Source: Patescibacteria group bacterium
GTDB taxonomy: Bacteria; Patescibacteriota; Minisyncoccia; Minisyncoccales; RBG-13-42-11
Assembly: GCA_035529635.1 (NCBI GenBank)
Contig: DATKWJ010000018.1
Location: forward strand, 3,823-67,822
Length of the DNA: 64,000 bases
Direction of reading: 5' to 3'
Shown here one piece after another: positions 4,811-13,747 of the stretch. Every line of letters begins with the position of its first letter. Position 1 is the stretch's first letter. Position numbers and translations under genes: made by a program. The notes under the pieces were generated by a model. That model worked only from the letters and a program-made list of their open reading frames with translations. It did no database searches and was not told the DNA's origin.

Positions 4811-5173
4811 CTATTTTCTTAATTTATCAGAAATAACGATTACGGCATAAAATATTATTCCCAAAACAACAATGCCCAATCCCCATCCCAAAATTCCATT
4901 TGTAATTAGATTTATACCAATTCCCCCGCACACAATTGAAACAACAAATTTCAATATCTCATGAAAAACGAGCGTACTAGCCCTACTAGCCTGCACTGCA
5001 TTATTTTTGTCTGCCTCATGATATTTTGCACGATATATTTCAAGTTCATCTTGAGTACTCCCTAATGATTTCTCGAGTGTTTTAACCTTCTCAGACATCA
5101 ACTTAAAGGCGGCTGTTGTTTTTTGTTCGGCAGGCGTAAGTCCTCTTTTTATTTTTTTATTAAGATATGTCAT
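4811..5173 (-). CDS. small coiled-coil protein with C-terminal glycine-rich double TM hairpin, unknown function
   Basis: 120 aa. The N-terminal half is charged and helical (EKVKTLEKSLGSTQDELEIYRAKYHEADK). The C-terminal half is FVVSIVCGGIGINLITNGILGWGLGIVVLGIIFYAVIVI. Its ATG overlaps the upstream stop as ATGA (5170-5173), and it ends 2 nt before the hsdR start. Confidence 0.6.
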   Translation of the reverse strand: MTYLNKKIKRGLTPAEQKTTAAFKLMSEKVKTLEKSLGSTQDELEIYRAKYHEADKNNAVQASRASTLVFHEILKFVVSIVCGGIGINLITNGILGWGLGIVVLGIIFYAVIVISDKLRK

Positions 5174-5544
5174 TGTGAAAAAAAGAGGCTTATTGGATCT
5201 TTTTCAGACCACGAAAAAGATTTGAATGGTTTGAAAGGAACAAACTCAGTGAACGACCGAAATGGTTCGAATTCCACAAATCCTGGAAATGGTTTGAATT
5301 GTTTGAATGGAAAAAATGGCGCGGGGGTATCGCTTGGATTTTCTCCGAACCCAACACAATGTCCATCTCTATCTCTCATTACTCCGTTTTCAAACCAGCC
5401 AACATATTTTCCTAAATAATTAAAAAGGTTACCGTCCTTTATAAAGCCGATACTCTTTCCGGGGAAACTAACTATCCTACCGTTATCGAGTAACCGAAGA
5501 ATTGGCGCTCCGTACCTATTGTAAATTACATCGATTTCGTTCAT
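5170..5544 (-). CDS. 4-fold beta-flower-like protein with C-terminal Pro/Phe/Lys repeat tail, unknown function
   Basis: 124 aa. The N-terminal half has repeated G-x-hydrophobic beta-hairpin-like units (NRYGAPILRLLDNGRIVSFPGKSIGFIKDGNLFNYLGKYVGWFENGVMRDRDGHCVGF). From memory this resembles the family annotated as '4-fold beta flower protein'. The tail is PFFPFKQFKPFPGFVEFEPFRSFTEFVPFKPFKSFSW. There are ATGA overlaps with hsdS (5541-5544) and with the next gene. Confidence 0.5.
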   Translation of the reverse strand: MNEIDVIYNRYGAPILRLLDNGRIVSFPGKSIGFIKDGNLFNYLGKYVGWFENGVMRDRDGHCVGFGENPSDTPAPFFPFKQFKPFPGFVEFEPFRSFTEFVPFKPFKSFSWSEKDPISLFFSQ

Positions 5545-6824
5545 ATTTTTATTTCCCCTTTCATTAATTTTGGTAAAAACAAATCGCGAAGAGATGCTAA
5601 TTTTTGATTTTCCGAAGATAACTTGTTGACTCTATAAAATATAGGTTTTATTAAATCGAAAAAATTTGTTAATACTTTGTTAGATGGAAGAACAAATGAA
5701 TAATCACTTATAACGGATTGGCTCAGATGGGAAACGTTTGTCCCAGAAGCCGAACTAGCCATAAAATACGAAAAGTTTCTGCGTAACATTAAATAATAAA
5801 GAAATGTTTTTAGAACATCTTGCGTTTTAATGGAACAAACATCGAGTGAAATTAAAATCTTATCCCATCCTTTTATTTCGGGAACTCTCGCCGGATGTCC
5901 GATAACTTCACGGTTAGAAGTTAAATCAGTAAGTGCGACAACAACGTCACCGGATTCAACTAAATTAGAATCTTTATATTTTCCGTTAAAAAACTTAATT
6001 CCTTCGATTTTAAATCCACCACCCCTTACAAAATTAGACAAATTAATCATCGGAGTACCCCCATTATTCTCTCTTATTTCTTCGGAAGAATATGATAGGC
6101 CTTTATTAATTTTCGCCACATTACCGATTTTTTTTACTTCCCAGCCTTCCGGGATTTCCCCTAATTCAGAATCAACCATTTTTACTTTTTCATGGCCTGG
6201 AAATTTAAATTTAACAAACCACTCCTTAAAAATCGCCTGGGCCATTTGCTCCAGATTCTGATTAACCTTATTATTCAATTCAATCTTTTCGTCAAAAGCG
6301 GAAAGAATTTCGGCGATCCTTTTTTGTTCACCAACATCTTCAGGGGAGAAAATTTCTATTTGCCTTAATTCTGCTTGTCTTATTCCCTCAGCAGCTGTAC
6401 CGCTCAAGCGTCGCATTAATTCATGCCTACCCTCTGGACTTAATAAATAATAATAAAGAAATAGCGAATTAAGTTTCTTTGAGTTTGTTCTCAGCGCAAA
6501 AAGACGCTGGCTTAAACAAAGTTCTATTTTATTTTTTATATAGAAAAGTTCACCCAAAGGCGCTTCGGAAGTTAATAAAAGATCTCCTACTTCTAGTTTG
6601 TTTGTCATCCATTTTTCATAAAGATCTCTATTTACATATCTAATATCATTTTCATTAACAATCCGACCATTTTTTATATTTTTTGCCGAAATAGCGGGAA
6701 CACCACTAATTGACCAACCACCACCCATCTTTTTAGGTGTTTTACCTCTATGATCGATTATCAAATCAAGTAGACCTTCCAACTTCACTTTCCGCCAGTT
6801 TTTATTTTGCAATTTCTGAACCAT
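5541..6824 (-). CDS. hsdS: type I restriction-modification specificity subunit (HsdS)
   Basis: 427 aa. It has the two-TRD layout with conserved central and C-terminal helical spacers (…QNLEQMAQAIFKEWFVKF… and …NQKLASLRDLFLPKLMKGEI). Its start overlaps the hsdM stop (TAATG at 6822-6826). Confidence 0.85.
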   Translation of the reverse strand: MVQKLQNKNWRKVKLEGLLDLIIDHRGKTPKKMGGGWSISGVPAISAKNIKNGRIVNENDIRYVNRDLYEKWMTNKLEVGDLLLTSEAPLGELFYIKNKIELCLSQRLFALRTNSKKLNSLFLYYYLLSPEGRHELMRRLSGTAAEGIRQAELRQIEIFSPEDVGEQKRIAEILSAFDEKIELNNKVNQNLEQMAQAIFKEWFVKFKFPGHEKVKMVDSELGEIPEGWEVKKIGNVAKINKGLSYSSEEIRENNGGTPMINLSNFVRGGGFKIEGIKFFNGKYKDSNLVESGDVVVALTDLTSNREVIGHPARVPEIKGWDKILISLDVCSIKTQDVLKTFLYYLMLRRNFSYFMASSASGTNVSHLSQSVISDYSFVLPSNKVLTNFFDLIKPIFYRVNKLSSENQKLASLRDLFLPKLMKGEIKI

Positions 6825-8614
6825 TATAATAACTTTTCTAAATTATTCTCAATCTCTTTTTCTAATTTTCTGCTTTCTCTAAAATATTGTTTTAATTCGC
6901 CTGTTAATTTTTCCATCTTTTCTTCAAATGGTACGCCATCTTCTTCCTCTTCAGTTACTCCTACATATCTGCCGGGGTTTAAAACATAACCATTTTTCGT
7001 AATTTCTTCTTTTTTGACTGACTTGCAAAAACCAGCGATATCTTTATATTCGCTCCCATGGTTTTCTCCCCTCCAAGCTCGCACAGTACCGGCAATTTTT
7101 TGAATATTTTCATCGTTGAAAATAACTTGTTTCCGAGAAATGGGTTCAAAAGTTTCGCGAGCGTCAATAAAAAGAGCCTCTCCGATTCTTTTTCTAAATC
7201 TTCCATTATTTTTATTCTTGCTAGCAAACCATAAAGAAACTGGGAGCGAAACGTTATAAAAAAGCTTTGGCGGACAAGCTATAATCACATCTATTAAATC
7301 ATCCTCAATAATTTTTTTTCTAATTTCGCCTTCCCTGCCCCCAGTTGCCAAAGCACCATTCGCCATTACAAAACCTGCCATTCCATTCGGCGCTAAATGA
7401 TGAATAAAGTGCTGAATCCACATAAAATTGGCGTTTCCCGAAGGTGGAATCCCGTATTTTATCCTCGGATCCTTATCGCTTAATCTCCCCGGCTCCCATT
7501 CAGCATTGAAGGGTGGATTAGCTATAACAAAATCTGCGCGGAGATCAGGAAATTTGTCATCATAATAAGAATTACCAATTTCTATCTGCCCAAAAATTCC
7601 ACGAATTGCTAGGTTCATTTTACAGAGCCGCAAGGTTGTAAAGTTACTTTCTTGTCCGAAGAAAGAAATTTTAGAAGAATCTTTCTTGTGTATTCTTAAG
7701 AATTCGCTTGATTGTACAAACATTCCTCCGCTACCACAAGCAGGGTCAAATACCCGGGAATTTTCGTACGGTTCCAAAACTTCAACAATTAATCTAACAA
7801 TAGAGCGCGGAGTATAAAATTCTCCACCGCGCTTTCCTTCAGCGGAAGCAAACTGGCCTAAAAAATATTCATAAACCCTACCCAAAAGATCTTTTTCTTT
7901 TTCGATGTCGTGGTCAAATGTAATTTTTGAAAATATATTGACTAATTCTCCAAGGATATGGCTTTCAAGTTTTGTTTGAGTATAAATTTTGGGGAGCACT
8001 CCTTTTAATTGTTTTGGATTTTCATTTTCAATTGCTTCCATCGCCTCATCAATGTATTTTCCAATATCACTATGCATGGCGCGGTCTCGCAAATATTCCC
8101 AGCGGGCATTTTTGGGAATGTAAAACACGCCCTCTCTTTTATACTGATCTTTATCGTCAATTATAACTTTCCTGTTTTTTTCATTAGGAACATAATAATC
8201 CTTATTTTTAGGATCGCTTACCCATTGCTCTAATTTCAACCGTCTTTGATAGAAAGAATCTGAAACGTATTTTAAAAATAAAAGCCCTAAAATAATATGT
8301 TTGTATTCGGAAACATCAATATTGCCACGCAATCTATCTGCGGCTTTCCAAAGCTCTTTTTCAAAATCTAAATCTTTGCCTGCTTTTTCTCCAATTTTTG
8401 TGGCCTTCTCGACTATTTCTTTTTGTTGACTTGCTATTCGTTCTTTAATATCAGCGGGAAGGGAAGCTTTCTCTACTACAAAACTTTTGCCGAATTCGGC
8501 GATTTTAATTCTGCCCTCTTTAGCCATTTTGTTTATTTGTTTAAGGGCGGCGACTCTGCTTATACCAAGTAATTTTGCAAATTCGCTTGTTGTTATGTAT
8601 TTTTCTTTTTCCAT
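6824..8614 (-). CDS. hsdM: type I R-M N6-adenine DNA methyltransferase (HsdM) with fused N-terminal excisionase-type HTH
   Basis: AdoMet motif VFDPACGSGGMF and catalytic motif VIANPPFNAEW. The N-terminus ITTSEFAKLLGISRVAALKQINKMAKEGRIKIAEFGKSF looks like an HTH_17/excisionase-type HTH. The track ORF starts at 8698. I prefer the ATG at 8614 (M29) because the 28 extra codons cover the predicted promoter/operator palindromes. Confidence 0.9.
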   Translation of the reverse strand: MEKEKYITTSEFAKLLGISRVAALKQINKMAKEGRIKIAEFGKSFVVEKASLPADIKERIASQQKEIVEKATKIGEKAGKDLDFEKELWKAADRLRGNIDVSEYKHIILGLLFLKYVSDSFYQRRLKLEQWVSDPKNKDYYVPNEKNRKVIIDDKDQYKREGVFYIPKNARWEYLRDRAMHSDIGKYIDEAMEAIENENPKQLKGVLPKIYTQTKLESHILGELVNIFSKITFDHDIEKEKDLLGRVYEYFLGQFASAEGKRGGEFYTPRSIVRLIVEVLEPYENSRVFDPACGSGGMFVQSSEFLRIHKKDSSKISFFGQESNFTTLRLCKMNLAIRGIFGQIEIGNSYYDDKFPDLRADFVIANPPFNAEWEPGRLSDKDPRIKYGIPPSGNANFMWIQHFIHHLAPNGMAGFVMANGALATGGREGEIRKKIIEDDLIDVIIACPPKLFYNVSLPVSLWFASKNKNNGRFRKRIGEALFIDARETFEPISRKQVIFNDENIQKIAGTVRAWRGENHGSEYKDIAGFCKSVKKEEITKNGYVLNPGRYVGVTEEEEDGVPFEEKMEKLTGELKQYFRESRKLEKEIENNLEKLL

Positions 8615-8648: not shown

Positions 8649-8693
8649 AGGTTATCATATGATAACCTAGTTGTCAAGTTTTTTGCTTGACAA
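8649..8693 (-). promoter_or_regulatory. putative hsd operon promoter with palindromic operator
   Basis: On the minus strand: TTGACA (8677-8672), a 17-nt spacer, then TAACCT (8654-8649). A perfect 18-bp palindrome GGTTATCATATGATAACC (8650-8667) fills the spacer and -10 region. A second inverted repeat, TTGTCAAG-N7-CTTGACAA (8671-8693), overlaps the -35. Confidence 0.45.
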
Positions 8694-8711: not shown

Positions 8712-8741
8712 TTGACACCGTCTCAGGAAGCCCGATATAAT
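8712..8741 (+). promoter_or_regulatory. near-consensus sigma70-type promoter, divergent from the hsd operon
   Basis: TTGACA (8712-8717), an 18-nt spacer, then TATAAT (8736-8741). Confidence 0.6.
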
Positions 8742-8747
8742 AAAGTT

Positions 8748-9000
8748 GTAAAATTGAATACGAATTAGATTGTTCATCTTTGAACTATTCCGGAAAAATA
8801 AACACTTGCTCATTCCCTGATACCGATTAGCTGATAATCCAAGCGGATTAAAAGCCCCGGGAAGGGGTTGAGAAAAGCTATTTTTCCCAGGTTGGAACCG
8901 AGAAGCAATCAATTCAGCATTTTCGCTAGCCTTATGCAAGCGCTGATTTGATTACCTCTCGGTTTTTAAATCAGCAGCTGTATAAACAGGCTGCTGTTTT
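8748..9000 (+). ncRNA. ~250-nt structured leader RNA / candidate cis-regulatory attenuator upstream of the ParB-methyltransferase gene
   Basis: It lies between the promoter (8712-8741) and the ATG at 9033 and has no credible ORF. Local hairpins: GTTCA-TCTT-TGAAC (8772-8785), GATTA-GCTGA-TAATC (8825-8839) and CCCC-GGGAA-GGGG (8855-8867). An 8-bp stem GCTGATTT (8942-8949)/AAATCAGC (8968-8975) shares 8972-8975 with the terminator stem. I recognise no known riboswitch class. Confidence 0.4.
8972..9000 (+). terminator. intrinsic terminator-like hairpin inside the leader
   Basis: CAGCAGC (8972-8978) pairs with GCTGCTG (8990-8996) and is followed by TTTT (8997-9000). It lies 33 nt upstream of the next start codon. 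Confidence 0.5.
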
Positions 9001-9032
9001 AGTTATGTGTTTAATCATTTAGCTTTAAATCT

Positions 9033-10379
9033 ATGGCAAAAATACAAAATAAAAAATTCGCTCACGAAAATATAAAAGTTCAGTACGTGCCTATTAACCA
9101 ATTAAAACCGGCAAGCTATAACCCCAGAAAATGGGATAGTGCAGCAACTGCCCAATTAAGGGACAGTATTCGGCGTTTTGGATTGGTCGATCCATTTATC
9201 GTTAATTCGGATCCCAATAGAAGGAATATTATCATCGGCGGTCATTTCCGCTGGACAGTAACAAAAAAGCTGGGAATAAAAACGGTTCCGATTGTTTACG
9301 TTAATATTCCAGATATTGAGAAAGAAAAAGAATTGAATATCAGGTTGAATAAAAATGTCGGTGCATTTGATTGGGATCTTCTGGCTGCTTTTGGAGAAAA
9401 CTTTTTGGCTGATATCGGATTTAATAGCGAAGAATTAGACCAAGTATTCCAAATTGATGAAACCCCAGAAATGTTTGACCTGGTAAAAGAGCTTGCCAAG
9501 CTTAACATCCAAAAAATACAAATCCAGAAAGGAAACATCTGGCGATTAGGAAATCATCGAATGATGTGCGGCGACTCAACGATCGAAAAAGATGTTTTGA
9601 AATTAATGGGCGGAGAAAAGGCAGATATGTGCCTCACGGACCCTCCGTATATATTGAATTATCTGCAAGGCAAGAAAAAACACGGGAAAGCAACGGAAGG
9701 CTTCGGATATAAAAGAGACAGGCGTTATTTAGAAACGGATGTTTTACCCCCTAATTTCACTGAAAAATGGATGGCGAATATAAGTAAAGTGCAAAAGGAA
9801 GATTTCAGCATTATTTGCTACGAGAATTGGAAAAACATTCGGACTATATGGGGTGAAATGGAAAAATACTGGAAAGTTAAGAATATGATTGTCTGGAGGT
9901 TGCCAAATCGTGTACAGGGATTTGCGGCTAAATACCGATTTTTTAACAAGCACGATATAGCCATGGTCGGACAATCCGGAAATATTGAGTTTAACGAAAA
10001 ACCAGAAAAAGAATTACTACAGAATGAATATGAGACAGCCCTTTATGCCATAAGCGGAAAACCGCACTGGGAGGGATATGAGAAAGGAAAGAAAATCTGC
10101 CCGACGGATTTTATTGAATTTCATGCAGCAGATGAAAAAAGTTCGGGACAAGGAATAATATTCGGTACAAAGCCAATAGAAATTCTTATCCCCTACATAA
10201 AGGTCTTAACCAAAAGAAATGATTTAATTATAGAACCGTTTGGAGGATCAGGCAGCACATTGATTGCCGCACAGAAAATGAAGAGACGATGCTACTTAAT
10301 GGAGAAGTCGCCTGTATACTGCGAGGTGATAAAGCATCGCTGGGAGAAATTAACAAGCCTAAAAGCTAAAAAACTATGA
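9033..10379 (+). CDS. ParB-like nuclease domain fused to N6/N4 DNA methyltransferase
   Basis: 448 aa. The N-terminus resembles a ParB/sulfiredoxin-like domain (VPINQLKPASYNPRKW…IIGGHFRW). The MTase motif IV is CLTDPPYILNY and motif I is IIEPFGGSGSTLIAA. Confidence 0.85.
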   Translation: MAKIQNKKFAHENIKVQYVPINQLKPASYNPRKWDSAATAQLRDSIRRFGLVDPFIVNSDPNRRNIIIGGHFRWTVTKKLGIKTVPIVYVNIPDIEKEKELNIRLNKNVGAFDWDLLAAFGENFLADIGFNSEELDQVFQIDETPEMFDLVKELAKLNIQKIQIQKGNIWRLGNHRMMCGDSTIEKDVLKLMGGEKADMCLTDPPYILNYLQGKKKHGKATEGFGYKRDRRYLETDVLPPNFTEKWMANISKVQKEDFSIICYENWKNIRTIWGEMEKYWKVKNMIVWRLPNRVQGFAAKYRFFNKHDIAMVGQSGNIEFNEKPEKELLQNEYETALYAISGKPHWEGYEKGKKICPTDFIEFHAADEKSSGQGIIFGTKPIEILIPYIKVLTKRNDLIIEPFGGSGSTLIAAQKMKRRCYLMEKSPVYCEVIKHRWEKLTSLKAKKL

Positions 10380-10780
10380 AAACTGAAAAAGAAAAACAAT
10401 TACTGATCGAGCAACTAAAGAAAACGCCGATCGCCCAGATCGCCTGCGAGAGATCCGGCATCAGCAGAGCCAGTTATTATCGGTTAAGAAAGGAGGATGG
10501 AGAATTTAAAAAAATGACGGATGACGCAATTATTGAGGGCGAAACGCTTATTACGGACATGAGTGAGTCACAATTGATTTCTTTAATCCGGGATAAAAAT
10601 TTTCCAGCCATACAATTATGGCTGAAGTCGCACCATCCGAAGTATAGCCAAAAAGTCGAATTGAACGGCCACATAACATATTCGGACGAGGAACTTACGC
10701 CGGAGCAGGCGAACGTTGTAAAACAAGCACTGCGGCTCGCCTCGTTTGATAAAAAGCATGGAAAAGAAAAAAAGAAATAA
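10376..10780 (+). CDS. small HTH protein, possible terminase small subunit
   Basis: 134 aa. The HTH is IAQIACERSGISRASYYRLRKE. It sits immediately upstream of TerL, and its start overlaps the MTase stop (ATGA at 10376-10379). Confidence 0.45.
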   Translation: MKTEKEKQLLIEQLKKTPIAQIACERSGISRASYYRLRKEDGEFKKMTDDAIIEGETLITDMSESQLISLIRDKNFPAIQLWLKSHHPKYSQKVELNGHITYSDEELTPEQANVVKQALRLASFDKKHGKEKKK

Positions 10781-10784
10781 AAAG

Positions 10785-12281
10785 ATGAATTTTGAGGAAA
10801 TCATTGAAGCAATGCTCAAGGATAGAAGGATCAGATTAAATATCGTAAAGAGAAGCCATAAATTCTTCTTCTATTTCTATTTTACCCATTACACCGAGTT
10901 CGAGATTGCTCCTTTCCACGAAGAAATGTTCCATATCACCCAAGATACGAAAATTCGCAGTGCAGTCATTGTCGCTTTTCGGGGATCCAGCAAATCAACC
11001 ATCTTTTCCCTCTCTTTTCCTCTGTGGGCAATTCTGGGAGAGCAAAGAATTAAATTTGTTTTAATTTTAAGCCAGACCCAACAGAAAGCCCAGATGCTAC
11101 TCCAGCAGATTAAATATGAGCTAGAAACAAATGGTTTTCTGAAAAGGGATTTAGGACCATTTCAAGAAGAACGCAACCAATGGAACATGGTTTCGCTCTA
11201 TCTGCCGCGCTACAATGCCAAAATTACCATTGCCTCTACCGAACAAAGCGTGCGCGGTCTAAGACATAAACAATATCGCCCGCAATTAATCATCTGCGAC
11301 GATTTGGAAGATATGGATTCCGTCAAAACAATAGAAGGACGAGAAAAAGTGTATAACTGGTTCATGGGAGAAGTACTCCCTGCCGGAGCCAAACAAACAA
11401 GGCTTATGATTGTCGGTAGCTTGCTCCATGGAGATTCTTTTATCAGACGATTACAGAAAAATATTGAGAGTACGAAAATGAATAAGGCCGTTTATCGGGA
11501 ATACCCTATTATAGATGAAAAAGACAATCCCACTTGGCCAGGGAAATTCCCGGATCAAAAAGCCATTGATGAAGAAAAGTTAAAAGGCATTGATGGGCCT
11601 ACCTGGCACCGCGAGTATCTCCTTAAAGACGTCCCGGATGAAAATCAAAGAATCCTTGAGGAATGGTTCAAAGAATATCCCATGATGCCAAATTCAACAG
11701 GAGACGATTATGTCGGGACGTTTATCGGCATAGATCCGGCGGGATCGGACAACGAAAACGCAGACTGTACTGCCATGGTGGCAGCGAGTATTTTTGGCCG
11801 CGGAGAAGAAATGAAAATTTATATCCACCCGAATCCCATAAACAAGAGGTTGCGATTTAACGAAATCAGAGACCAGGCCATACTACTTTCAAAAACACTC
11901 GGAATAAGATACCCCGCAACAATAATTGTGGAGGACGTCGGTATTCAGAAATGGCTTACCCAAGAGTTAAAGGACGCGGGCATACCGGTAAAAGAATTCA
12001 AAGTAGCTGGGATGAACAAAGGAGAAAGGCTTACTATTGCCGCCTCTCGAGTGCAGGCTGGAAAAGTATTTTTTCCGAAAGATGGAGTAAAGGATTTACG
12101 ATTGCAACTTCTTAATTTCGGCAGAGAAAAACACGATGATTTAGTTGATGCGTTTACCATGCTTATTCTGGAAATAATGAAAGACAACGGAGGAGCATGC
12201 TCTCCGCTCCCCGACCAAGGGAATACTGACAATGAAAGATACAAACCACTTTTCGCCAGCTTAATGAATAGAGAGTTTTAG
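10785..12281 (+). CDS. phage terminase large subunit (TerL)-like
   Basis: Walker A-like VAFRGSSKST and Walker B LIICDDLED. The C-terminal RNaseH-like nuclease signature is GIDPAGS…IIVEDVG…KHDDLVDAF. The track ORF starts at a TTG at 10746. The ATG at 10785 lies 4 nt after the upstream stop and gives MNFEEII…. Confidence 0.75.
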   Translation: MNFEEIIEAMLKDRRIRLNIVKRSHKFFFYFYFTHYTEFEIAPFHEEMFHITQDTKIRSAVIVAFRGSSKSTIFSLSFPLWAILGEQRIKFVLILSQTQQKAQMLLQQIKYELETNGFLKRDLGPFQEERNQWNMVSLYLPRYNAKITIASTEQSVRGLRHKQYRPQLIICDDLEDMDSVKTIEGREKVYNWFMGEVLPAGAKQTRLMIVGSLLHGDSFIRRLQKNIESTKMNKAVYREYPIIDEKDNPTWPGKFPDQKAIDEEKLKGIDGPTWHREYLLKDVPDENQRILEEWFKEYPMMPNSTGDDYVGTFIGIDPAGSDNENADCTAMVAASIFGRGEEMKIYIHPNPINKRLRFNEIRDQAILLSKTLGIRYPATIIVEDVGIQKWLTQELKDAGIPVKEFKVAGMNKGERLTIAASRVQAGKVFFPKDGVKDLRLQLLNFGREKHDDLVDAFTMLILEIMKDNGGACSPLPDQGNTDNERYKPLFASLMNREF

Positions 12282-12346
12282 GTCTTAAAGTTACCAACAG
12301 TTTACCAACTAGGGGGGCTGGACTCCCTAAGACCGTTGCGACATCC

Positions 12347-12374
12347 TTGTCCCTAGAAAGGTCGAAAATATAAT
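12347..12374 (+). promoter_or_regulatory. possible promoter for the recombinase gene
   Basis: TTGTCC (12347-12352), a 16-nt spacer, then TATAAT (12369-12374), 17 nt upstream of the ATG at 12392. Confidence 0.3.
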
Positions 12375-12391
12375 TAAAAATATTTAAGACT

Positions 12392-13747
12392 ATGGGACAA
12401 ATTGCAACAATAAAAATAACGGATCAGCAGTCTCCTCTCGCAGTTGCGTCTGTCCGCTACTGCCTTTATGCAAGGAAAAGCACGGAGTCAGACGAGCTCC
12501 AAGCTTTATCGATTGATTCGCAAGTCAAAGAAATGCTGGCTATGGCTAAAAAAGAAAAGCTGGAAGTCTCTGAGATAAGACGAGAAAGCCACTCGGCAAA
12601 AGATTCCAGCCAAAGGCCGGTCTTCAACCAGATAATCGAAGATATAAAAAGCGGCCTGTTCAGCGGAATTCTAACTTGGGCGCCCGACAGGCTGAGCAGA
12701 AACGCCGGCGATTTGGGGTCTTTGGTTGATTTAATGGATCAGGGACGGTTAATAGAAATAAGAACTTATGGCCAAAGGTTCACGAATAATCCGAATGAAA
12801 AGTTTTTGCTGATGATTTTGTGTAGCCAGGCAAAGCTGGAAAATGACCATAAGGGTGAGAATGTGAAGCGAGGACTGAGAGCCAAATGCGAAATGGGATG
12901 GCGACCCGGCGCAGCCCCTCTCGGATACATCCACGATAAATTTGCGCTAAAAGGGCAAAAGAGAGTGCTTACAGATCCTAAAAGAGCTCCTATCATGAAA
13001 CAAATGTTCGAAAAGGTAGCTTACGAAGGAGCAAGCGGAAGGGATATTTTAGACTGGCTTAACAATGAAATGAATTTCACAACGAGAACCGGGAAAAGAA
13101 TCGTTCTCAGCGGAATTTATCGGATGCTCAAAGACACCTTCTATTACGGAGAATTCGAATACCCCGTAGGAAGCAGTAATTGGTACAAGGGAGGTTATGA
13201 CCCGATTATCACAAAAGAACTGTTCATGGCGGCTCAGGCGGAGCTTACTGCTCCCCCGCGACGCCATCCTGGGACTAACGACTTTGAGTTTACCCGTCTT
13301 CTATATTGCGGCTCGTGCGGATCGGGAATCTGCGCCGAAGAAAAATTCAAGCATCAGAAAAACGGAAACACCCACCGTTACGTTTATTACCACTGCACAA
13401 AAGGTAAAGACAGGAGTTGCAAAGAAAAAGCAATTCGGGAAGAGGAACTGACCGAACAGCTTCTAAGGGTCATAGACAAGATTGATATTGATGAAATCGG
13501 AACCAGGGGAAAAATTCTGAGGGAAGTCCAAAGATACAGAAAATTTAGCTACCAGGTTCTAAACCAGGAATCAAACCTCGGCAATAGATCAATTGATATT
13601 GATATCCGTAATTACGCGAAATACATTCTTACCGAAGGATCAAAGGACGAAAAAAGAGAATTATTATCATGTCTGAGAAGCCGTCTGGAAATAAAAGATA
13701 AAACTGTCTATCTGAAAATACAAGGCAGGGAAGATCTGGAAAAATAG
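12392..13747 (+). CDS. large serine recombinase (integrase-type)
   Basis: 451 aa. The resolvase-type N-terminus is YCLYARKSTESDELQALSIDSQ. It has a recombinase domain and a zinc ribbon (CGSCGSGICAEEK…YYHCTKGKDRSC), plus a C-terminal coiled coil. Confidence 0.9.
   Translation: MGQIATIKITDQQSPLAVASVRYCLYARKSTESDELQALSIDSQVKEMLAMAKKEKLEVSEIRRESHSAKDSSQRPVFNQIIEDIKSGLFSGILTWAPDRLSRNAGDLGSLVDLMDQGRLIEIRTYGQRFTNNPNEKFLLMILCSQAKLENDHKGENVKRGLRAKCEMGWRPGAAPLGYIHDKFALKGQKRVLTDPKRAPIMKQMFEKVAYEGASGRDILDWLNNEMNFTTRTGKRIVLSGIYRMLKDTFYYGEFEYPVGSSNWYKGGYDPIITKELFMAAQAELTAPPRRHPGTNDFEFTRLLYCGSCGSGICAEEKFKHQKNGNTHRYVYYHCTKGKDRSCKEKAIREEELTEQLLRVIDKIDIDEIGTRGKILREVQRYRKFSYQVLNQESNLGNRSIDIDIRNYAKYILTEGSKDEKRELLSCLRSRLEIKDKTVYLKIQGREDLEK

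Follow-up and report, generated by a model that had tools for sequence, protein, structure and literature searches.

The DNA analyzed here is a 64-kb stretch of sequence from a member of the Patescibacteria (candidate phyla radiation, CPR), which will be called the window and on whose scale all coordinates are given. The closest homologues of the proteins encoded in it come nearly all from Patescibacteria metagenome-assembled genomes, and an identical contig is present in JGI 3300031566, ENA ERZ27256834, SRR8554643, and SRR8554512. The element under study, a structured leader, sits in a 418-nt gap separating two gene blocks. On one side of this gap, an operon on the + strand (9033–13747; Pfam and PHROG matches) contains four genes: one for a ParB-domain N6/N4 DNA methyltransferase (ParB-MT; 9033–10379, also with Pfam and PHROG matches), one for a terS-like helix-turn-helix (HTH) protein, terL coding for a terminase large subunit (match to PHROG 38, E = 7e-74), and one for a large serine recombinase, which is followed by one open reading frame (ORF) and a tRNA-Asn gene. 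On the other side, a type I restriction-modification (RM) operon comprising hsdR, two small genes, hsdS, and the HsdM gene is transcribed divergently from the − strand, the ATG of the latter being located at 8614. An earlier interpretation, made from the letters of the sequence only (hereafter the sequence-only reading), had proposed that the ParB-MT gene is preceded by a new cis-regulatory RNA or, alternatively, by a stand-alone small RNA (sRNA). The promoter, the stem A, the terminator, the mini-ORF, and the ATG that it had located in this region all agree with the sequence.

The leader is preceded by a sigma-70-type promoter (8712–8741, + strand) formed by the hexamers TTGACA (8712–8717) and TATAAT (8736–8741), which are separated by 18 nt. 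With a score of 12/12 it is the sole perfect consensus promoter on either strand of the 64-kb window, and it predicts a transcription start near 8748. Both hexamers are perfect in six of the eight members of the leader family described below, despite their unrelated spacers. The promoters of the other two members read TTGACT/TATAAT (L118) and TTGCAT-17-TATCAT (L088), and in both cases the distance to the leader is unchanged; in L088 the promoter sequence has been replaced at the same distance, and homology begins at the transcription start. From the promoter to the ATG of the ParB-MT gene (9033) there are approximately 290 nt without a conserved ORF, and no + strand ORF of at least 30 aa was found between 8622 and 9032, which bears out the earlier claim that no credible ORF follows the promoter. 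A promoter scan found no further + strand site between 8742 and 9032, and the 32-nt spacer that separates the terminator from the ParB-MT start codon (9001–9032, + strand) contains no promoter-like site. Because of this absence between terminator and ATG, the operon appears to be dependent on read-through. The spacer is 81% identical in three homologues, and its length ranges from 32 to 36 nt across the family. Shine-Dalgarno (SD) sequences are rare in this genome (4 of 34 genes), and several genes of the window carry a TATAAT box 6–10 nt before their ATG, which suggests that their mRNAs are leaderless; in a genome of these characteristics a 290-nt leader is exceptional. Sequestration of an SD sequence was discarded as irrelevant for the same scarcity of SD sequences.

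The RNA comprising positions 8748–9040 (293 nt) folded with −94 kcal/mol, as compared with −64.7 ± 5.0 kcal/mol for dinucleotide shuffles (z = −5.9). The opposite strand folded equally well (z = −6.7), and therefore the strand had to be decided from other evidence. The conserved promoter, the presence of a U-tract 3′ of the last hairpin on the + strand only, and exchanges on the + strand that involve G-U pairs pointed to the + strand, and for these reasons the element is considered an RNA rather than a DNA element. When the window was compared with Rfam 15, nothing reached the gathering threshold, the best match in a search at E ≤ 10 being a plant microRNA model (E-value 0.18), and at the gathering threshold no match to the leader was found in 18 homologous loci either. 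This is in line with the sequence-only reading, which had recognized no known riboswitch consensus. No trans target complementary to the leader was found within the window, and a search of the literature yielded nothing on the cassette or on its leader. An origin from a miniature inverted-repeat transposable element or another repeat was rejected, since a second copy is absent from the window and from the other loci examined.

Seven further distinct copies of the leader were obtained (L086, L087, L088 (= L091), L089, L109 (= L110), L111 (= L112), and L118), which were gathered from the contigs carrying the closest proteins and by means of one gapped DNA pattern run over metagenomes (two matches), and were confirmed by nhmmer with E-values of 1e-41 to 1e-81. 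All eight members of this family, named class 1, are located directly upstream of a ParB-MT gene and in the same orientation, and all belong to Patescibacteria. The divergent genes on their upstream side vary among the homologues and include type I or type IIG RM genes, a gene for a LexA-like repressor, and unknown genes. The single leader, used as nhmmer query, matched none of 80 genome loci, and therefore the leader is confined to a subset of cassettes. Exact and gapped leader DNA patterns had 0 matches in IMG/VR, where the ParB-MT loci lack a class-1 leader, and no DNA match to the leader was found among the INPHARED phages, whose ParB-MT homologues are only ~30% identical. Comparison of the window with five homologues showed that the 3′ half of the leader (hairpin P3 and the terminator, see below) is 87–95% identical in nucleotides, while the ParB-MT genes of the same five are only 70–76% identical to that of the window; the 5′ half of the leader is ~65% identical versus ~90% for this 3′ platform. 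The ParB-MT protein is itself strongly conserved (67–82% amino-acid identity across hundreds of CPR contigs). That a non-coding stretch should be more conserved than such a gene implies a strong and multi-layered constraint.

The consensus structure computed with RNAalifold from the eight sequences (Fold A, corresponding to the terminated state) consists of a long hairpin P2, a hairpin P3, and the terminator. In a cell-by-cell count over the eight sequences, 96.8% of its pairs are standard, and 11 pairs show changes on both sides, in comparison with 2.9 ± 1.4 in shuffled alignments (0 of 500 reaching this number) and at most 3 in slid controls. Related loci, in which the sequence-only reading had advised looking for conservation and covariation, thus displayed both, with eight family members and 11 compensatory pairs. 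Seven of these pairs are located in P2 (8792–8887, + strand), a composite hairpin made up of a basal stem, helices a, b, and c, and a variable tip; they represent 7 of its 21 pairs, its positions are 97–100% paired, and in the window it folds with −34.3 kcal/mol. Three tight hairpins had been described upstream of stem A in the sequence-only reading: one of them persists as a weak hairpin, P1 (8772–8785, + strand), which overlaps the region 0 defined below, and the rest turned out to be sub-helices of the single composite P2. The inner module of P2 (8805–8877, + strand), of the form UUCUCA-UU-CCC ... GGG-U-UGAGAA and containing an internal loop and helix c, was captured by the covariance model R1 (59.5 bits). 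The length of this module varies: 16 nt are inserted in the window, two tandem copies occur in L111, and a plain CCC-loop-GGG hairpin is what is left in L118. A search of 827 kb with the model yielded no copy beyond the family. Interpretation of the internal loop of P2 as a kink-turn was dropped, since the consensus does not fit.

P3 is a hairpin with 23-nt arms and −29.4 kcal/mol, formed by region 1 (8896–8918, + strand; 5′ arm) and region 2 (8942–8964, + strand; 3′ arm), which constitute the inverted repeat I1. It is almost invariant, with one compensatory pair (C-G to U-A) in L111. It is followed by a predicted intrinsic terminator (8972–9000, + strand) with the sequence CAGCAGCUGU / ACA-(G bulge)-GCUGCUG and then UUUU, and with energies of −12.7 to −14.5 kcal/mol, whose arms CAGCAGC (8972–8978) and GCTGCTG (8990–8996) and TTTT tract (8997–9000) end 32 nt before the ATG of the ParB-MT gene. 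The hairpin and the U-tract are found in all eight members of the family, and the stem is kept by a G-C to A-U exchange in L087, by CAGCCC/GGGCUG in L111, and in L118 by the insertion of a C with which the bulged G pairs; the terminator of L086 is weak. A consensus terminator scan, whose rules exclude the bulged stem and the 11-nt loop, missed this terminator. The consensus fold also contains a closing helix in which the A-rich 5′ end pairs with the U-tract and the next four bases (8752–8758 with 8998–9004); it is A/U-rich, includes one covarying pair (C-G/U-A/U-G), and may be due to chance, although a discrete RNA whose ends are paired would be expected to have such a helix. The long 5′–3′ pairing seen in the single-sequence minimum free energy (MFE) structure was weakly recovered in the eight-sequence consensus.

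The proposal that a stem A, with arms GCTGATTT (8942–8949) and AAATCAGC (8968–8975), excludes the terminator was confirmed, and the helix extends further than had been noted: a 19-bp anti-terminator helix (8932–8951 with 8966–8985, + strand; −25.4 kcal/mol) has stem A at its core and takes up the entire 5′ arm and the loop of the terminator. When the 23-nt partner was shuffled, the energy was −12.3 ± 2.2 kcal/mol and none of 2000 shuffles reached the native value, which was matched by 2 of 2000 random genomic 23-mers. Across the homologues the anti-terminator is 93.5–95.5% paired, with few exchanges that are compatible with G-U pairing; one of them is G8936 of the window, which also creates the ATG of the mini-ORF. 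Region 2 is shared, because its first bases are also part of the 5′ strand of the anti-terminator: it is complementary both to region 1 (I1) and to region 3 (I2), which completes a 1:2 / 2:3 / 3:4 arrangement. Region 1 is shared as well. Its centre (8904–8915) is the 3′ strand of a long-range helix, P0, whose 5′ strand is region 0 (GAAUU-A-GAUUGUU; 8762–8774, + strand). RNAduplex gave −12 to −16 kcal/mol for P0 in all eight sequences versus −5 to −8 kcal/mol for shuffles, and covariation is seen in its anchored core, where G-C (seven sequences) or A-U (L111) occupies position 5, U-G, U-A, or A-U position 6, and U-A, C-G, or A-U position 7. A possible pairing between GAUUG and the bases immediately preceding the AUG was dropped, since inspection by eye showed that it is not conserved.

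Since P0 and P3, each of them supported, compete for identical bases of region 1, bistability is predicted for this RNA. When the stretch between the transcription start and the U-tract was folded, the combination of P0 and anti-terminator was the MFE structure in five of the eight homologues; in the window it reached −83.2 kcal/mol versus −83.4 kcal/mol for P3 plus terminator, that is, they lie ~0.2 kcal/mol apart. When region 1 was blocked, the MFE structure of the 3′ domain flipped to the anti-terminator in six of the eight.

The leader is thus a new conserved RNA family of ~255 nt, with eight members and predicted bistability, representing a regulatory type that is already familiar. We favor, with moderate confidence, the interpretation that it acts as a factor-dependent transcription attenuator gating the operon for ParB-MT, the terS-like protein, terL, and the recombinase. 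The promoter match, the conservation, the covariation in P0, P2, P3, and the terminator, the non-random complementarity of the anti-terminator, and the near-equal fold energies were obtained by computation; from them we infer how transcription and termination would proceed, that the switch would set the level of read-through, and what might flip it. According to this model, transcription would begin near 8748 from the consensus promoter, and the nascent RNA would come to contain region 0 and fold the long hairpin P2. A choice would then be open to region 1 (8896–8918), which could pair either backwards with region 0, generating P0 and closing the P2 domain, or forwards with region 2, generating P3. 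Formation of P3 would leave region 3 free for region 4, with the result that the terminator (8972–8996 plus UUUU) would form and a short RNA would be released 32 nt before the start codon. Conversely, if P0 were held, region 2 would pair with region 3 in the 19-bp anti-terminator, the 5′ arm of the terminator would be sequestered, and RNA polymerase would read into the operon. As trigger, a trans-acting protein or RNA (of host, helper-phage, or element origin) or else the kinetics of co-transcriptional folding is considered more likely than a metabolite. The regulatory RNA proposed in the sequence-only reading is in part supported, namely by the conservation and covariation, by a conserved promoter and terminator of its own, and by the conserved overlap of terminator and anti-terminator, whereas its ribosome-mediated version was rejected and a small-molecule riboswitch became less likely (see below).

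Several results weigh against the attenuator interpretation. The leader class does not track any neighboring protein, and the putative sensor domain P2 is variable inside, without a conserved aptamer core. No strict compensatory double changes were seen in the anti-terminator among the eight sequences, because it is nearly invariant, and the apical stem of P3 accounts just as well for the sole compensatory candidate, an exchange of A8939 for G in L118. The terminators of L111 and L118 are stronger, and there the anti-terminator does not win at equilibrium. Moreover, in the alternative fold the 3′ arm of the terminator pairs with GC-U-AGCC (8925–8931) or with the CAGC of region 1; a hairpin base may in this way remain next to the U-tract, so that termination might continue. 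Equilibrium sequestration of the 5′ arm, calculated with the whole upstream RNA, was no better than in shuffles; in this test, with region 1 available, P3 wins. Finally, eight related sequences are few for covariation statistics.

The layout of the leader has clear precedents. A promoter, a long untranslated leader, and a terminator before the first gene are also found in the trp operon of Escherichia coli, in the PyrR system of Bacillus, in TRAP-regulated leaders, in the ribonucleic antiterminators (RAT) of BglG/SacY, and in riboswitch platforms, and, as in classical attenuators, a conserved alternative helix shares the 5′ arm of the terminator and a putative upstream anti-anti-terminator (P3) would decide which helix forms. 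Unlike trp-type leaders, the one described here lacks a leader peptide, and it departs from classical attenuators in having no match to a curated RNA family or known protein-binding motif, in its extra upstream competitor P0, which would make it a four-helix relay, and in its location in a packaging/recombination operon of a CPR mobile element instead of a metabolic operon. It also resembles the pR′-6S RNA-tR′ region of lambda with its Q protein, where a strong, apparently constitutive promoter gives rise to a terminated RNA of ~200–250 nt before the packaging genes and read-through is required; however, neither a Q-like gene nor a promoter-proximal Q-binding element was found here, and the leader carries conserved alternative pairings that lambda 6S does not need. 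As with the P4 CI RNA and the P1/P7 c4 antisense RNA, the RNA belongs to an integrated element and derives from the leader of the operon that it would control, region 2 shows complementarity to the segments on both of its sides, termination would be premature, and relatives are diversified, the likeness in complementarity being one of logic only; in contrast to C4 (RF01695), to which there was no sequence or structure match at E ≤ 10, the interactions can here all be intramolecular. A structured RNA just downstream of the promoter of a phage-like element and upstream of a terminator is, in addition, reminiscent of HK022 put and EAR RNAs. These are constitutive and act on RNA polymerase, unlike the leader, which has an alternative helix overlapping the terminator and predicted bistability, and for which no Rfam EAR match was found.

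The strong promoter and the intrinsic terminator would also suit a stand-alone sRNA, an explanation that we consider unlikely but deserving of attention. In this case, the terminator would be constitutive and a structured RNA of ~255 nt (8748 to ~9003) would have a function of its own, for instance in RNA-based immunity or copy control like the P4 CI RNA, the operon being expressed solely by leak or from elsewhere. In P4, seqB is complementary to seqA and seqC, and the relationship of region 2 to regions 1 and 3 is formally alike. The closing helix 8752–8758/8998–9004 and its covarying pair are typical of discrete stable RNAs, although this A/U-rich helix is weakly supported. The divergence of the leaders into many unrelated classes alongside conserved proteins is as expected of immunity determinants, and the U-tract is still preceded by a helix in the alternative fold. 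However, the RNA is always joined to the start of the ParB-MT gene in the same orientation and by the conserved spacer of 32–36 nt, no promoter was found that would be left for the operon, no complementary target was found elsewhere in the window, and there was no match to the C4/CI family of Rfam. The need for read-through could instead be served by processive antitermination, which we regard as doubtful: the promoter would be constitutive, the terminator would be overcome by a lambda Q- or N-like protein of the element or of a helper phage, and the alternative helices would be incidental or recognition sites. In lambda, pR′-6S RNA-tR′ is placed ahead of the late packaging genes, and the present layout is similar, with terS and terL among the gated genes. 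Other leader classes of these cassettes have very strong, perfect terminators of 20 bp or more, unlike typical riboswitch platforms, and one class carries boxB-like arrays of GNRA hairpins; also, L111 and L118 retain the leader even though their anti-terminator cannot out-compete the terminator. Nevertheless, Pfam and PHROG scans of the neighboring proteins gave RM subunits and the four operon proteins but neither Q nor N nor any further antiterminator family, the factor being possibly encoded elsewhere, and this explanation accounts neither for the non-random, conserved complementarity of the anti-terminator nor for a covarying P0 that competes with P3.

P0 and P2 could also be viewed as the aptamer of a small-molecule riboswitch, in which a ligand would stabilize P0 and turn the platform ON. 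ON riboswitches are likewise built of a structured domain closed by a helix, with a relay platform after it, and the tandem duplication of the inner module in L111 recalls some tandem aptamers. This is nonetheless improbable, given that Rfam gave no match, that the interior of P2 is the least conserved part and the platform the most, the reverse of known riboswitches, and that the gated genes have no metabolic logic. The folding of the − strand (z = −6.7), together with two A-C mismatches of P3 that would be G-U pairs on that strand, the recurrence of AATCA-type motifs in both orientations, and the ability of ParB and TerS proteins to bind DNA, would be accounted for by an element acting at the DNA level through protein-binding repeats, such as an operator, a parS or pac site for ParB or TerS, a recombinase att site, or an origin. 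Against it, the compensatory changes in P2, P0, and the terminator use + strand G-U pairs, only on the + strand does a U-tract come after the last hairpin, the promoter is kept at a fixed distance even where its sequence has been replaced (L088), homology starts at the promoter or transcription start and not at a boundary like that of a recombination site, and the recombinase gene lies 3.4 kb away from the leader; we therefore judge it very improbable. Least credible of all, and practically discarded, is a ribosome-mediated attenuator operating through the 5-codon mini-ORF (8934–8951) to which the sequence-only reading had drawn attention, or through a longer, in-frame ORF of 19 codons starting at TTG-8892. 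Their overlap with regions 1 and 2 is just like that seen in the trp leader. The mini-ORF is indeed present in the window, but it is not conserved: its ATG-8934 is replaced in all seven homologues, by ATA in L086–L089, L109, and L111 and by ACA in L118. TTG-8892 is TTA in L089, L109, and L118, and the frame is shifted in L088 and L111. No SD sequence was found, in a genome where 4 of 34 genes have one. Ribosome-mediated attenuation was consequently rejected, as start codons are lost and frames shifted among the homologues.

The module that follows the leader recurs across many CPR lineages, and portal or capsid genes are not adjacent to it. The order of the ParB-MT, terS, and terL genes was seen in ~75 of 108 loci, with a recombinase gene after terL in at least 45, and the gene order of the operon is identical in L085 and L091; in L111 and L118 a tyrosine integrase takes the place of the serine recombinase. 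The other proteins of the module are less conserved than ParB-MT, being ~50% (terS), ~45% (terL), and ~57% (recombinase) identical. This four-gene module could be a satellite-like or minimal mobile element. In L085, a pair resembling a diversity-generating retroelement (10781–12973; a reverse transcriptase gene and a bAvd-like gene) adjoins the recombinase gene of the cassette. With regard to the divergent RM operon, HsdM (6824–8614, − strand) has an extra N-terminal HTH domain of ~80 aa, its HsdM_N Pfam match beginning at residue 85; L109 codes for the same 596-aa HTH-HsdM fusion, and L085 contains a separate 54-aa HTH_17 gene at the same divergent position. The two small genes of this operon are located between hsdR and hsdS (4811–5544, − strand), and one of them encodes a '4-fold beta-flower' protein (PF21784, E = 4e-25). 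Between the start of the HsdM gene and the leader promoter there is a perfect 20-bp palindrome, AGGTTATCAT|ATGATAACCT (8649–8668), which is also present in L109 alongside the same HTH-HsdM gene, and next to it an inverted repeat, TTGTCAAG-N7-CTTGACAA (8671–8693); the right arm of the equivalent repeat in L109 constitutes the −35 box of the leader promoter. The palindrome and the repeat are likely operators for a DNA-binding regulator.

The regions upstream of ParB-MT genes in other CPR lineages fall into many classes that are unrelated in sequence. Of the 38 loci with at least 200 nt of non-coding sequence upstream, 28 had MFE z scores below −2 (median −4.8), and in a crude scan 58 of 84 loci showed a hairpin plus T-run no more than ~150 nt from the ATG; many of these hairpins are strong, lie 20–90 nt from the ATG, and often have the tail TTTTTTGTTTG. 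None of these leader classes matched Rfam. Since most of the long upstream regions are likewise structured and terminator-bearing, the class-1 leader represents one solution to a seemingly general need, and a structured RNA ending in a terminator looks like a general requirement before this module. One such class (L057, L059, L069, and L072) comprises, in ~300 nt upstream of the ParB-MT gene, five to seven short YCCU-GAAA/GNRA-AGGR hairpins and then a terminator, and its GNRA tetraloops recall lambda boxB. Another one (L002, L003, L010, L011, L022, and L053) combines an invariant AAAGAGGCUUYGCCUCGGUCGUGCCCA motif with a pair of covarying hairpins and a long terminator, and a conserved ORF of ~120 aa precedes this leader; no Pfam or PHROG family was found for this or the other ORFs located upstream of such leaders. 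A further one, 'class 2' (L085:5553–6000 and L090:2455–2774), shares the same promoter type (TTGACAAGGTTTCTT...) and has three (A)GGAAGGA repeats and a terminator loop carrying UGGUC, the accompanying ParB-MTs being 76–80% identical to that of the window. In L051 (3457–3578, − strand), a LOOT RNA (RF03000, 94 bits) is located just upstream of the leader promoter of another cassette. It is conceivable, although rather doubtful, that class 1 is one of many fast-diversifying, unrelated leaders, next to the GNRA-hairpin arrays, the GGAAGGA repeats, and the conserved GAGGC..GGUCGUGCCC motif of the other classes, that serve as RNA determinants of specificity or immunity or as receptors of helper-phage antiterminators and control the very widespread and highly conserved ParB-MT/TerS/TerL/recombinase module of Patescibacteria. 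If this were true, the module would be a satellite-like mobile element whose mobilization is gated by RNA switches.

To our knowledge, the regulatory RNAs of the CPR are almost unexplored, and we know of no control circuit described for their mobile elements. The leader offers a concrete candidate switch: four competing helices have been mapped, the eight variants found in nature include a duplication and a deletion of the putative sensor, and the packaging/recombination module located behind it occurs in hundreds of CPR genomes. Were the terminator constitutive, the element would be an abundant new sRNA of CPR mobile elements. If, as we favor, the leader gates the operon, it would tell when these elements mobilize, and the unrelated structured leaders occupying the same position would be a rich source of new RNA regulators.

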